Shown one piece after another: positions 10,069-46,281 of a stretch of DNA of 64,000 nt (its first letter is position 1; each line of letters begins with the position of its first letter). Below the pieces are notes generated by a model. That model was not told the origin of the DNA. It was given only the letters and a program-made list of their open reading frames with translations, and did not search any database. Origin of the DNA: a virus (Duplodnaviria; Caudoviricetes). Both the position numbers and the translations under genes were made by a program. The DNA lies in the IMG/VR virus record IMGVR_UViG_3300014039_000024, positions 21,086 to 85,085 of that record; one strand, written 5' to 3'.

Positions 10069-10109
10069 AAAAATAAAACGGGGATAAGAGCAATTATACT
10101 CTTATCCCC
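10069..10109 (-). terminator. Intrinsic terminator-like hairpin between the 10155-10688 gene and TMP
   Basis: GGGGATAAGAG-N8-CTCTTATCCCC, 11 bp perfect stem, followed by TTTTATTTT on minus. Confidence 0.7.
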
Positions 10110-10154
10110 ATCACTCTATTATTTTTCAAAAAATAATATTATTAACTAATTTAA

Positions 10155-25765: not shown

Positions 25766-26821
25766 TTAAGATTTTTTGGCCTTAGAATTTCGACAACTTT
25801 TACAAATACTATAAAAGCCATCTTTACTTGTTTTATTTTTACTAAAATATTTATTATGTGCTAATTTTATTTTACCACAACGACTGCATTTTTTATATTT
25901 ACCTTTTTCGATATTTAAATAATAATCATCTAAATATTCGTCTTCCGCAGTCGAAGCAATTAATTTTGGAATTTTATTACGCCATAAACTTGAAATATAT
26001 TCAAGGCTATGTTTAATACCAAATTCCATTTGTATTTTCTCTTGAATGTCAATATTCTATAAACCATCAATTTTATATTCAACGATTCTATCATAAAGGG
26101 GGTAATTTGCTAAAGCTTTATCACAAAGTTTATCAAAATCTTCCATTAAATACCATAAATCTTTATCATATTCTCCCCAGCTATCTTGTTTTAAGCGAGA
26201 ATAATTGCATAAAACCGCAGAACATATTTCAGGTCTTAATAAACTAATTCCATCTGGAATAGGATATCCTTCATCATCAAAAATAAAAGTTTTATCATCT
26301 AAAGGAATATAAGACTTAGATCTGGTTAATTTTGTAGGCGTTATTGGGCGACGATAAGCATTTTTAATAACATACTAATCTTTTCGCATTTCAATAAGAG
26401 CCTTTTTAATAACAAAAGCATCTTTACCTTCTGTTACTTTTAATTTAGCCTCCCAAACACTAATGGCTTCTCTTAACTAATTTAAACTTGGTATTTCTTC
26501 TAAATCTTTTTTTGTAATTGTAATATGTGGTTGAAAAATTGTATTTCTATTATCTGTAATTAAATTATAAATTCCATCTTCGCCATTTTCTAGTTGGGAA
26601 ACAAGACCTTCAAAAGAAGTTTCACGTTTATTAACTGTAGCCATACGATTATCAGTTAATAGTTTTTTCTCCTTTTTTTCTTGTTTCTCCATACAAAGAA
26701 CCAAATAGTCTGCTAAAATTTCTAAATACTTTTCAGGCGGATCTGGATTATCAGCCAAAATTTGTTCGACTAATTGATTTCTTTCTTCTGGAGTTTGTAA
26801 AGAATAATCAAGTTTTATCAT
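25766..26821 (-). CDS. Putative transcription regulator (HTH-like segment plus C-terminal CxxC...CxxC Zn ribbon), 351 aa, 3 TAG
   Basis: GGAGG RBS; joins track ORFs 26477-26821 and 25766-26029; first gene of the morphogenesis strand. Confidence 0.6.
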
Positions 26822-26845
26822 TTTTTACCTCCAGTCTATATAAAT

Positions 26846-26874
26846 ATTATACTCGAAAAAATTTTTTCTGTCAA
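26846..26874 (-). promoter_or_regulatory. Perfect sigmaA promoter for the 25766-26821 gene
   Basis: TTGACA-17-TATAAT. Confidence 0.85.
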
Positions 26875-43911: not shown

Positions 43912-43946
43912 AAAAAAGAGAGACTATTTTTAGTCTCTCTTTTTTT
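43912..43946. terminator. Bidirectional terminator between convergent regions
   Basis: A6-GAGAGACTA-TTTT-TAGTCTCTC-T7. Confidence 0.85.
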
Positions 43947-44126
43947 ATGGGCTACGGAGATCGGATGACGAGGAATAAGGTCTGGTAGTTAGTTGAACCG
44001 ATCGGCAGGGCACAACCGCAATTTCTACCAAATCATTTAAAATTATATAATTTTATCCCACGTCATCCGATTCTTCACCCATCAACTTAATCACTATCCA
44101 GAAGCGAATCAACCAATATAGATCTA

Positions 44127-44201
44127 TTAACGGTCTCTTCCAGCATTCTATATACAATATCCAACAGCCATACCAAGTAAGAAACAAACAATATAAATCA
44201 T
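44127..44201 (-). CDS. 24-aa hydrophobic peptide with one TAG (MIYIVCFLLGMAVGYCI*NAGRDR)
   Basis: GAGGAGG RBS; single TM helix. Confidence 0.45.
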
Positions 44202-44210
44202 AATCCCTCC

Positions 44211-44621
44211 TCAATGAGAACACGTAGTGTTCGAATTTACAAGCAACTCCTCCAACTTTATCTTAAATGCACCATCAAGAATATCATCGGCAAGCGTCCT
44301 TTGCCCCAAATCAACCTCTCCAAGAGACACAGTAATATTGGGTCTATTATCCGCGGACTTGTCTTCAAAGACCGGTTTTACATATCTATACTCACTCTCA
44401 ATATATTCCACTTTTCCCTGCTCTGTAATTCTACCAAGAACCTTACCATTAAATACCAACTTATTACAATCATCCCAAATAAGATAAGCACCTTGCGTAT
44501 TTTCTCTATTAAAGAATTCTCTCTTAGTAGTTGCAATTACATTCCAATTGCGGAAAACGCCTACCTTTTCTCCATTATTCTTTTTCAAAGTTTCAGTATC
44601 AAATTTCATTTCAAATTCCAA
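44211..44621 (-). CDS. Hypothetical protein, ~136 aa, no TAG
   Basis: Track ORF; upstream TTGATT-17-TAAAAT promoter (44797-44769). Exact start uncertain. Confidence 0.6.
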   Translation of the reverse strand: MEFEMKFDTETLKKNNGEKVGVFRNWNVIATTKREFFNRENTQGAYLIWDDCNKLVFNGKVLGRITEQGKVEYIESEYRYVKPVFEDKSADNRPNITVSLGEVDLGQRTLADDILDGAFKIKLEELLVNSNTTCSH

Positions 44622-44723
44622 ATCCTTACTTTCATTTCATAATTTAAAATACTCCCCGGAATATATTCCCCGTATAAACTTAAAAAGAATATACCCCGGC
44701 TTATTATTTTTCATTTCGTTTTT

Positions 44724-44941
44724 AACGAGGGCATTTATGCCCGAAGTCTTTTTTCTTTTATTATTTATATTTTAATATATTATTTAATAAAAATCAAATA
44801 ATACCCTTATCAACGAGGGCATTTATGCTCGAAGCCAATATATTATTTATTATAAATCAAATAAACTCCTAAAGAAATGGATTTTCTTCTATTGATCCAG
44901 GTTTATCATCCCCATCAACGAGGGCACTTGTGCCCGAAGTC
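44724..44941. repeat. Three 25-nt direct repeats with palindromic core
   Basis: AACGAGGGCATTTATGCCCGAAGTC at 44724, AACGAGGGCATTTATGCTCGAAGCC at 44812, AACGAGGGCACTTGTGCCCGAAGTC at 44917. Confidence 0.85.
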
Positions 44942-45135
44942 TCAAATACTACCTTTATTGGTTTAGTATCTGGTGTAGGAATAACTAAATAAATAGTATT
45001 ATCTTTCATATATATATCAGGCTTAATAAAACCTGTTGTATCCATTTTATCAAACTATTCTTGCGTTCCTCTAGCAAATCTAACAATAGATTGATTGCCT
45101 TTTCCTCCCATTACATCTGTATAACTATATGACAT
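44857..45135 (-). CDS. Hypothetical protein, 92 aa, 2 TAG (absent from ORF track)
   Basis: AAGGAG RBS, ATG 45135, TGA stop (MSYSYTDVMGGKGNQSIVRFARGTQE*FDK...). Confidence 0.55.
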
Positions 45136-45167
45136 TTTAACTACTCCTTTTACTCTCATCTATAAGT

Positions 45168-45372
45168 CTTGCAAAAACTGTAGATTTTTTGCAAACTTGT
45201 TTGCAAAAATTCCTTAAATTGCAAATTTGCAAACTTGTTTGCAAAAATTTTGCATTTTTGTATATTATATATTGCTTTGTACAAAATGCAAAAATCATTG
45301 TAAATTGTACAATTGCAATTGCAAATTGTTGCAAAACTTGCAATATTGCAACAAAGTTTTTGCAAAATGCAA
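45168..45372. repeat. TGCA/TTGCAA array, candidate iteron region or origin
   Basis: 15 TGCA plus 2 TGTACA in ~200 AT-rich bp; the 24-mer TTTGCAAACTTGTTTGCAAAAATT occurs at 45188 and 45226. Confidence 0.85.
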
Positions 45373-45774
45373 TTAAAATACAAATTCTACATCTTTTTCT
45401 TTACGTTTTCTCCATCCTTCACTATGGTCTACAGAACTTTTACTAATACCTAATTCCTCAGATATCTAAGTAGAATTCATACCACTTTTAGCCAAATTAT
45501 AAATTTCACTATTAATAACTACTCTTTTGCGACCATAGTTATTTCCATTATTTACTTTATTTATATAATCTTGTTTACTCCTTTCAATAGCCCCTTTAAC
45601 AAAATTTAAACCCATCATAACCATAGGGTCATCTTGAAACTAAGGTTCATTGCCCGTTCCATATTGAACCATATCATAAACAATTTTCATCTACTCTTCA
45701 ATGGGTAAACCTTTTATATTCTCTAACCATTCGCCATAAAATACAAATCTATGTAAATCCTTTGTATTATCCAC
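45373..45774 (-). CDS. DUF6291-like N-terminal domain plus C-terminal HTH (replication-initiator-like), 133 aa, 3 TAG (absent from ORF track)
   Basis: GGGGAGG RBS, GTG start; RFVFYGEWLENIKGLPIEE*MKIVYDMVQYG and IYNLAKSGMNST*ISEELGISKSSV. Confidence 0.7.
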
Positions 45775-45967
45775 GCGGTTTCCCCTCCCCCTATATCTCT
45801 TCGAAGTCAGCTAAGAAGCTCTCATCGACAGAGAATATCCAACAATTATATTGCGGGAACTTTGGGTTTGGCATCATCTACAAAGGGAAATGACCTCTCT
45901 CTACTAGTTTTTCCATTACTCTAAAAGAATATACAATCATATTCTTCTTGGTGTTTTGATTTTCCAT
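45767..45967 (-). CDS. DUF5659-like small protein, 66 aa, 2 TAG (absent from ORF track)
   Basis: IVYSFRVMEKLVERGHFPL*MMPNPKFPQYNCWIF pattern; stop overlaps the next start. Confidence 0.55.
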
Positions 45968-45985
45968 TTGTTAATATACCTGCCT

Positions 45986-46132
45986 TTATTTGCTATGATT
46001 TGTTATATATTCTTTAAGCGCTTGTCTTACAATGTAAGACAAACTCAAATCTAATTCTTTACCCATCTCAGTAAGAATATCTTTATCACCCTATGAAATT
46101 CTAATTGTCATAGTAGTCATATCACTATTCAA
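45986..46132 (-). CDS. Ribbon-helix-helix (CopG/Arc-like) protein, 48 aa, 1 TAG (absent from ORF track)
   Basis: MTIRIS*GDKDILTEMGKELDLSLSYIVRQALKEYI is a canonical RHH pattern; TTG start after AAAGGA. Confidence 0.75.
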
Positions 46133-46281
46133 TTTATTCACATCCTTTCATTATTACATAAAAATACTTATTATTACTTTTTCTTATTTTGTCCTACAAA
46201 ATCATTCTTTATTGATTTTTATTAAATTTTAATATATAATATAACTATAAAATAAAGGAAAATTATTGAAAGGTGATAAAA

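Follow-up and report, generated by a model that had tools for sequence, protein, structure and literature searches.

A TAG-recoded minus-strand operon beside a unique box array in an uncultured gut phage: a candidate replication-control module

Why would a short run of minus-strand genes carry in-frame TAG codons when the plus-strand genes on either side of it carry none? This question is raised by an island at positions 44127-46132 of a 64-kb stretch of viral DNA (the window), which is the right-hand 64 kb of the 85-kb viral contig G000 (CheckV completeness 44%). The island lies on the minus strand and consists of five TAG-interrupted genes, each with one to three in-frame TAG, and one TAG-free gene. 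We found that its genes are real and recoded, that one of them encodes a DUF6291 domain followed by a helix-turn-helix (HTH), and that this gene is followed by an array of palindromic boxes found once per genome. The module is the best current candidate for a replication-control site in a widespread, uncultured clade of ~200-kb gut phages.

Recoded genes of the island

The preliminary description of this DNA had listed five minus-strand TAG-interrupted open reading frames (ORFs) of 48, 66, 133, 92 and 24 aa. All five are present, and a sixth gene, TAG-free and encoding 132 aa, had been missed. From right to left, the island reads:

45986-46132, minus strand: ribbon-helix-helix (RHH) gene, 48 aa from TTG or 44 aa from ATG at 46120; one TAG
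45767-45967, minus strand: DUF5659-like gene, 66 aa; two TAG
45373-45774, minus strand: DUF6291 and C-terminal HTH gene, 133 aa, GTG start; three TAG
44857-45135, minus strand: 92-aa gene with no assigned function, AAAGGAG ribosome-binding site; two TAG
44211-44609, minus strand: 132-aa gene with no assigned function; TAG-free
44127-44201, minus strand: tentative 24-aa hydrophobic ORF, GAGGAGG ribosome-binding site; one TAG

The ribosome-binding sites and the coupled stops and starts described earlier are visible in the sequence, with junctions that overlap or nearly abut. GGGGAGGGG is found upstream of the GTG of the 133-aa gene, whose start overlaps the stop of the 66-aa gene (GTGGATAA). AAAGGAG lies 9 nt upstream of the ATG of the 92-aa gene, and the 24-aa ORF, coupled to the stop of the 132-aa gene (TGA), has GAGGAGG between that stop and its own ATG.

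We compared codons mainly with L001, the locus of the relative G001, a 161-kb contig that is collinear with G000 at ~80% nucleotide identity. Synonymous changes outnumbered non-synonymous ones in the 66-aa gene (13:3) and in the 133-aa gene (23:13), and TAG and CAA were exchanged at four island sites. Two TAG of the 133-aa gene are CAA in L001, one CAA is TAG there, and one TAG occupies a nearly invariant glutamine (Gln) of the DUF6291-HTH family. TAG frequency was 18.2 per 1000 codons in the island and 14.0 in the late genes, against 0 in the 1834 codons of the 15 flanking plus-strand genes, which had correctly been called TAG-free. As a share of Gln positions, TAG accounts for 45%, 33% and 0%, respectively. 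Because TAG accumulates in the island as it does in the late genes and not in the neighbouring genes, the island belongs to the genes translated under active suppression. Taken together, these codon comparisons confirm that the island genes are real and recoded, with TAG read as Gln.

Other minus-strand TAG-bearing ORFs in the plus-strand arm were considered and rejected as spurious, with non-synonymous changes far exceeding synonymous ones and, in most, stops in G001. Since these ORFs look spurious, the island is the sole one of its kind in the window.

The predicted proteins were searched in the TAG=Gln translation against Pfam at its gathering cut-offs. The RHH protein matched PF01402 RHH_1 (26.0 bits, cut-off 20.5) and PF19807 DUF6290 (29.3 bits, cut-off 27) over residues 1-41, the TAG position included, and its PHROG matches are Arc-like repressors. 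The orthologues in loci L023 and L024 also score as RHH, and the TAG of the window gene aligns with a Gln in L023. The 133-aa protein matched PF19808 DUF6291 (54.0 bits, cut-off 27.2) at residues 27-101 of its 150-aa reading, across two TAG positions. Thus the matches to RHH_1, DUF6290 and DUF6291 all span TAG positions, and both earlier assignments, RHH and DUF6291, stand above the Pfam cut-offs.

The likeness of the 66-aa protein to DUF5659, also proposed earlier, held in part. The window protein itself gave no Pfam match at E up to 10. Its family comprises 337 representatives, and 17 of the 122 scanned match PF18903 (best E 3.2e-5), with no other family recurring; in the Atlas, a homologue (P0051) has DUF5659 clusters as its top neighbours, which at 0.88-0.89 fall slightly short of the 0.9 level. 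The likeness is therefore transitive, through the family and not through a direct match.

The genetic code can be read from the rest of the contig. The terminase, portal and structural proteins in the minus-strand block 1-26821 are readable only when TAG is read through, and a single 2754-aa ORF of this block contains 66 TAG. Of the late-gene TAG, 98 are conserved between G000 and G001, and where the two differ, TAG is matched by CAA or CAG in 78 codon pairs, which shows that TAG encodes Gln. One of the 25 tRNA genes of G001 has a CUA anticodon. No tRNA genes, and hence no tRNA(CUA), were found on G000, which is a 44%-complete, 85-kb fragment; those of G001 all map beyond the end of G000.

The tRNA(CUA) of G001 (G001 123381-123525; L010:2295-2439) measures 89-90 nt. 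Its variable arm is unusually long, as in class II tRNAs, even though TAG clearly behaves as Gln; position 73 is G (G73), and the 1-72 pair is mismatched. Directly after this tRNA lies a weak match to a hepatitis delta virus-like ribozyme (RF02682, 26 bits, below the gathering score), reminiscent of the theta ribozymes reported beside phage suppressor tRNAs (bioRxiv 10.1101/2023.06.13.544163).

By portal similarity, the clade comprises at least 290 viral contigs, and its complete members are 175-200 kb long. Named phages are only distantly related, with portal identities of 39.5% to Phass-1 and ~30% to 140-kb Enterococcus phages, and the island had no blastn match among INPHARED phages.

The box array and its putative binder

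The C-terminus of the 133-aa protein gave weak HTH matches. In its AlphaFold2 model (predicted local distance difference test score, pLDDT, 82), a helical N-terminal DUF6291 domain with a long helix is followed by a C-terminal three-helix HTH. Residues 82-126 resemble three-helix HTH DNA-binding domains, among them those of a mycobacteriophage immunity repressor, Tn3 resolvase, GcrA and GerE/LuxR, at Z ~5, a level typical of any small HTH. The best structural neighbour was PDB 7tz1 (Z 5.2, root-mean-square deviation 2.6 A over 42 residues, 29% identity). A fold search of the DUF6291 domain against the PDB returned nothing convincing, and a full-text literature search for DUF6291 returned no paper.

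The DNA that follows this gene holds the following feature:

45169-45365: box array, 12 palindromes of TTTGCAAA type, each an exact TTGCAA, six on either side of an AT-rich centre

The array lies within 197 bp, directly after the stop codon of the 133-aa gene, and takes up 12 of the 37 TTGCAA of the 64-kb window. The AT-rich centre between the two groups holds a sigma70-like TTTGCA-17-TATAAT that points at the 92-aa gene. We found exactly one TTGCAA cluster in each of G000, G001 and the complete 197.6-kb genome G002, and a six-frame search of the same three genomes showed that DUF6291 is single-copy as well. In L001, L022, L023, L024 and L137, 12-15 boxes follow the orthologous gene, while the sequence between the boxes is not conserved. 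In nine loci the array stands directly 3' of the DUF6291-HTH gene, a position kept in all relatives.

The boxes and the HTH vary together. In 6 loci, a recognition helix of the SKSSVDHSEGW type is paired with TTGCAA boxes. The helix STNAIYHNEGW of G006 is paired with the 16-bp palindrome CTACAAAWWTTTGTAG, whose six copies all lie beside the gene, within 224 bp, with none in the rest of the complete 175.6 kb. Two further pairs were found, the helix NVKTIYSSPGW with TTAAGAATTT-type boxes in G004 and the helix TQQIVSYRLG with TTTACAAA boxes in G008. Because the box sequence changes when the recognition helix changes, the 133-aa protein likely binds its own array. Most loci have an RHH gene in the operon, but in L022 the first operon gene encodes an unrelated small HTH and the array is still TTGCAA, so the DUF6291-HTH protein, and not the RHH protein, is the likely binder. 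On this co-variation, we consider it most likely that the DUF6291-HTH protein binds its own array.

We also considered whether the boxes are the TGCACAAA arms of the early modules. This was rejected, as those arms are the start regions of antisense promoters and stand in a different context.

Such a pairing of protein and site could belong to a partition-like system or to an incompatibility or exclusion determinant, the array being centromere-like or titrating like parC/incA and its specificity diversifying between competing phages. The operon contains an RHH gene, and its two groups of six boxes flank a promoter-like centre, a layout that recalls R1 parC/ParR; at least four protein-array specificity types occur in one clade. 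However, L022 swaps the RHH gene for an unrelated HTH and keeps its TTGCAA array, which argues that RHH is not the array binder, and Pfam and PHROG searches found no ParA/ParM-type nucleoside triphosphatase (NTPase) in the island. No integrase or partition genes turned up in the annotated regions, where most ORFs have no family match and no targeted search was made, and nothing suggests a plasmid prophage. We regard this explanation as very improbable.

Replication control, transcription control and timing

The relatives of the DUF6291 domain point to replication. DUF6291 proteins make up most of the top BFVD neighbours of the 133-aa protein and nearly all of the high-probability ones, with several annotated as a replisome organizer, a DnaD domain protein or a replication initiation protein. 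Proteins of 220-310 aa from 20 other phage or prophage loci have DUF6291 at their N-terminus. Six of these were scanned, and several had C-terminal parts matching PHROGs of a primosomal protein, an O-like initiator or a DnaD-like helicase loader (phrog_6451, 678, 10469, 345). Among the loci with neighbours listed, these initiator-type genes adjoin DnaB (L027), primase (L035) or single-stranded DNA-binding protein (L025) genes. The earlier statement that DUF6291 is an N-terminal domain of phage initiator or DnaD-type proteins is thus borne out, and the PHROG matches and BFVD names indicate an organizer-type N-terminal domain common to the 133-aa protein and phage replisome organizers.

We therefore favour, tentatively and at a little short of an even chance, a multimeric DUF6291-HTH complex on the array, of origin or origin-control type, with RHH autoregulation and an assembly that waits for the suppressor tRNA. 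In this mechanism, an operon conserved in the clade of 175-200 kb gut phages, transcribed in the direction of the late genes and here written in TAG=Gln, would supply as its core a small autoregulator (RHH here), a DUF5659-like protein and the DUF6291-HTH protein. The RHH protein would autoregulate the operon from the divergent promoter region, and the DUF6291-HTH protein would multimerise on the 12-box array that starts at its own stop codon. The outcome would be one unique nucleoprotein site per genome, of iteron or origin-control type: either an origin or a place where initiation is licensed or limited. TAG is present in each of the three DNA-binding-type genes, so the complex would form only once suppressor tRNA is available, after the early host takeover. 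Within this reading we infer the DNA binding, the replication role and the timing.

Several observations weigh against such a role. The 133-aa protein has no C-terminal DnaD-like or O-like helicase-loader domain; a 45-residue HTH takes its place, and its PHROG matches are N-terminal only. The DnaB-like gene of G002, at 116 kb, is ~110 kb away from the island at 3-5 kb and is TAG-free. Spaced irregularly by 6-20 bp, the boxes differ from classical phased iterons. The cumulative GC skew of G002 is lowest along a plateau that has the array at one edge, ~8 kb from the antipode of the skew maximum, but the skew mirrors the coding strand and cannot separate the array from the early/late junction, so its position gives weak support for an origin. 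Finally, the DUF6291 gene has no in-frame stop in the standard-code relatives G004, G005 and G006; recoding is dispensable there and may be passive. The genes flanking the island carry no replication annotation, and neither G001 nor G002 gave a DNA_pol_A match. Of the earlier proposal that the island is a replication-control module, the kinship of DUF6291 with initiators stands, while the missing DnaD/O-like C-terminus and the distant DnaB-like gene speak against the remainder.

The position of the island opens another explanation. The preliminary description had placed it inside the early region; it lies instead at the right border of the promoter-dense early block. To its left, at ~26.9-43.5 kb, this block has a higher G+C content (0.40-0.44) and ~25 near-perfect TTGACA-17-TATAAT plus-strand promoters, and to its right a long rightward arm starts. 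No strong sigma70 promoter was found in the island, unlike the adjacent early block; its composition is late-gene-like, and it is co-oriented with the late genes in 8/8 genomes where both were located. The island is bounded by two features:

46142-46281: divergent control region separating the island from the rightward operon, with a sigma70-type promoter and a tandem box
43912-43948: bidirectional intrinsic terminator shared with the convergent early operon, a GC-containing hairpin flanked by an A-run and a T-run

In the divergent region, the plus-strand operon has the promoter TTGATT-17-TATAAT (46212-46240), and a tandem AGGACAAA-type box lies at 46188-46196. Tandem AGGACAAA-like boxes ~10 bp apart (46170-46200) are kept in L001, L023, L024, L136 and L137, recoded and standard-code alike, and AAAAATCAAT and AGGACAA elements upstream of the island are conserved in six relatives. 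Elsewhere in the window AGGACAAA shows no enrichment, and it was rejected as a general promoter element; we propose the tandem boxes as a candidate RHH operator. The terminator described earlier at 43912 proved to be a strong hairpin on both strands (-22.1 and -26.3 kcal/mol; z = -7.6 and -7.2), more stable than any shuffled sequence, and its palindrome is conserved in L001.

The island might thus be a local transcription switch or insulator, with the RHH and HTH proteins as ordinary repressors and the array as an operator cluster or roadblock that has no replication role. The array would then control the 92-aa and 132-aa genes or shield the island from the convergent early operon. In favour of this, the RHH and the HTH protein fold like classic repressors, given the Arc-like PHROG matches of the one and the likeness (Z ~5) of the other to the mycobacteriophage immunity repressor and GerE/LuxR. 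The sigma70-like promoter in the array centre points at the 92-aa gene, tandem AGGACAAA boxes occupy the divergent promoter region, and the island stands exactly between two transcription blocks. However, in L022 a convergent gene follows the array, leaving no same-strand gene to regulate; 12-15 boxes far exceed the needs of an operator; and DUF6291 as a family is linked with replication modules rather than with repressors. We consider a purely transcriptional role rather unlikely.

Two further observations concern promoters. A TTTTTT(A)GAAAAWWATAGAGTRATG motif, conserved in G001, lies just upstream of two giant virion-type genes (1143 aa and 2754 aa) on the minus strand, at 1694-1711 and 10109-10126; it may be a phage-specific late promoter, and it was found only before these two genes and not before the island. 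The region 25766-26874 holds a sigma-factor-like gene (phrog_5767) with 3 in-frame TAG behind a perfect sigma70 promoter (TTGACA-17-TATAAT, 26874-26846, minus strand); this gene would encode a host-transcribed regulator still needing suppression for its translation. Judging from the consensus sigma70 promoters and the ribosome-binding sites of AAGGAGG type, the host may be Bacillota-like.

Relatives with and without recoding bear on the timing part of the origin-type reading. The recoded genomes G000, G001, G002, G003 and G008 have 2-5 TAG in the DUF6291 gene, and their opposite-strand flanking genes stay TAG-free. On the standard-code side, the portal gene of G005, G006 and G007 uses TAG as its stop and not within the frame, and three late genes of G004 are TAG-free. 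G005 has the full set of RHH, DUF5659-like and DUF6291-HTH genes with a TTGCAA array; G007 (71% complete) gave no DUF6291 match. The module is hence present in recoded and non-recoded relatives. Because standard-code relatives carry it TAG-free, the module works without recoding, and recoding is linked to the lineage and not intrinsic to the function. The TAG-bearing genes can be translated only with TAG suppression; that recoding gates the module, as proposed earlier, is a timing that we infer from the sequence.

The TAG codons may also have no regulatory meaning. In an operon expressed once the suppressor is present, they could have drifted from CAA/CAG, as late genes tolerate, and would mark timing passively without acting as a gate; this account is compatible with either an origin-type or a transcriptional function. 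G004, G005 and G006 keep the module TAG-free, with TAG a genuine portal stop in G005 and G006. TAG positions differ between close relatives, the TAG/CAA exchange runs in both directions, and the number of TAG per gene varies from 0 to 5 among recoded relatives. On the other side, the TAG share of Gln codons in the island is at least that of the late genes, and some TAG stand early in their ORFs (codon 10 of the RHH gene from the ATG at 46120), an absolute block to translation before suppression. A passive origin and a functional gate are not mutually exclusive. Drift alone is a possible account, if a somewhat doubtful one.

A stronger form of the origin-type reading would have the code switch license the complex, so that initiation at the array, or its shut-off, is timed by second-code translation and the diversification of array and HTH marks replication-incompatibility types within the clade. 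This form we hold to be unlikely.

The mixture of codes extends through the portal genes. The clade, with portals 59-68% identical, has TAG-recoded and standard-code members (L098, L112, L119 and L121 vs L055 and L080). Several standard-code members end the portal gene in TAG, and intermediates have 1-3 portal TAG. This graded series suits the study of how recoding arises.

Downstream genes, and comparison with known systems

The genes downstream of the array are less well characterized. The 92-aa gene has orthologues of 82 aa in L001 and 159 aa in L023, in which its TAG pairs with CAA; its protein had no Pfam or PHROG match. The 132-aa protein has a beta-rich N-terminal domain (AlphaFold2 pLDDT ~85), a variable linker and a C-terminal helix, and its 610 homologues include none with an annotation. 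Its gene showed 25 synonymous vs 31 non-synonymous changes, and the L024 orthologue has 4 TAG. A fold search returned nothing convincing (best Z 3.0), and Atlas matches stayed below 0.9. The 24-aa ORF, with 5 synonymous and 7 non-synonymous changes against L001 and a TAG that pairs with TGG, is conserved only in this closest relative and absent from L023 and L024; as a gene it is weakly supported.

One repeated element was found in this part of the island:

44724-44746, 44812-44834 and 44917-44939: 23-nt hairpin repeat, three copies; three matches, none expected by chance

The repeat reads AACGAGGGCATTTATGCCCGAAG on the plus strand. Its third copy lies in frame within the 92-aa gene and adds ETSGTSALVDG, and the L001 orthologue is without the inserted segment. 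TSGTSALV or TSDTSALV is also inserted in the linker of many homologues of the 132-aa protein. The repeat appears to be a small palindromic element that, like the Rickettsia palindromic elements, enters different genes in frame.

Between the array and the 92-aa gene, G001 has an insert that is absent from the window. It contains a 234-aa ORF (L001:6684-7388) with a GIY...YIG motif and several in-frame TAG, which matches phrog_1111 (endonuclease) at E 1.3e-5 and is probably a recoded homing endonuclease.

Compared with known replication systems, the module resembles lambda O/ori-lambda, SPP1 G38P and DnaD-like proteins (PHROGs 6451, 678 and 10469) in its N-terminal DUF6291 domain and in the repeated boxes with an AT-rich centre beside the gene. 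Unlike them, the island protein has no helicase-loader or DnaD-like C-terminus and carries a resolvase/GerE-like HTH instead, its boxes are short palindromes at irregular spacing, and helicase and primase genes are not adjacent.

P1 RepA-incA and R1 ParR(RHH)-parC have dense arrays of at least 10 boxes beside the gene of the binder, and ParR binds parC. The island shares with such plasmid iteron and centromere arrays a dense array beside the gene of a putative binder, two groups of boxes around a promoter-like core and an apparent co-evolution of protein and site specificity. In contrast to P1 and R1, it has no Rep-type initiator fold or partition NTPase, belongs to a lytic-type 200-kb phage, and its likely binder is an HTH and not an RHH protein.

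The stoperators of mycobacteriophage cluster A are dispersed over the whole genome. The likeness of the HTH to the cluster A immunity repressor (PDB 7tz1) and the many copies of one short site recall this system; unlike stoperators, the island sites all lie in one 200-bp cluster, and the HTH Z score is low, as for any small HTH.

Phage stop-codon recoding is thought to delay late and lytic functions. To our knowledge, this role has never been tested experimentally. The module extends the idea of delay to a compact DNA-binding-type system with a defined candidate target site. It also comes with two natural controls, TAG-free standard-code relatives and at least four matched protein-array specificities in the clade, which make binding and timing experiments easy to design.

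In code-15 gut phages, late genes are recoded with TAG=Gln, the recoding of replication genes varies, and large phages have scattered recoded modules (Borges et al., bioRxiv 10.1101/2021.08.26.457843; Peters et al., PMC9523058; PMC10607447). One early gene is reported to contain a recoded homing endonuclease, for which a delay through its in-frame stops has already been put forward (PMC9523058; PMC10607447). We found no description in the literature of the operon, of the array/HTH specificity pairs or of TAG and TAG-free occurrence within one clade. Like the recoded gut phages, the phage of the window has early genes compatible with the standard code, TAG-rich structural genes and, in a relative, a tRNA(CUA). 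Unlike the recoded units reported, the island is a small opposite-strand operon of DNA-binding-type proteins with a putative cognate cis site at the border of the early block. Beyond what has been reported for recoding, a single clade holds the same module in recoded and in standard-code form, a natural comparison with and without TAG.

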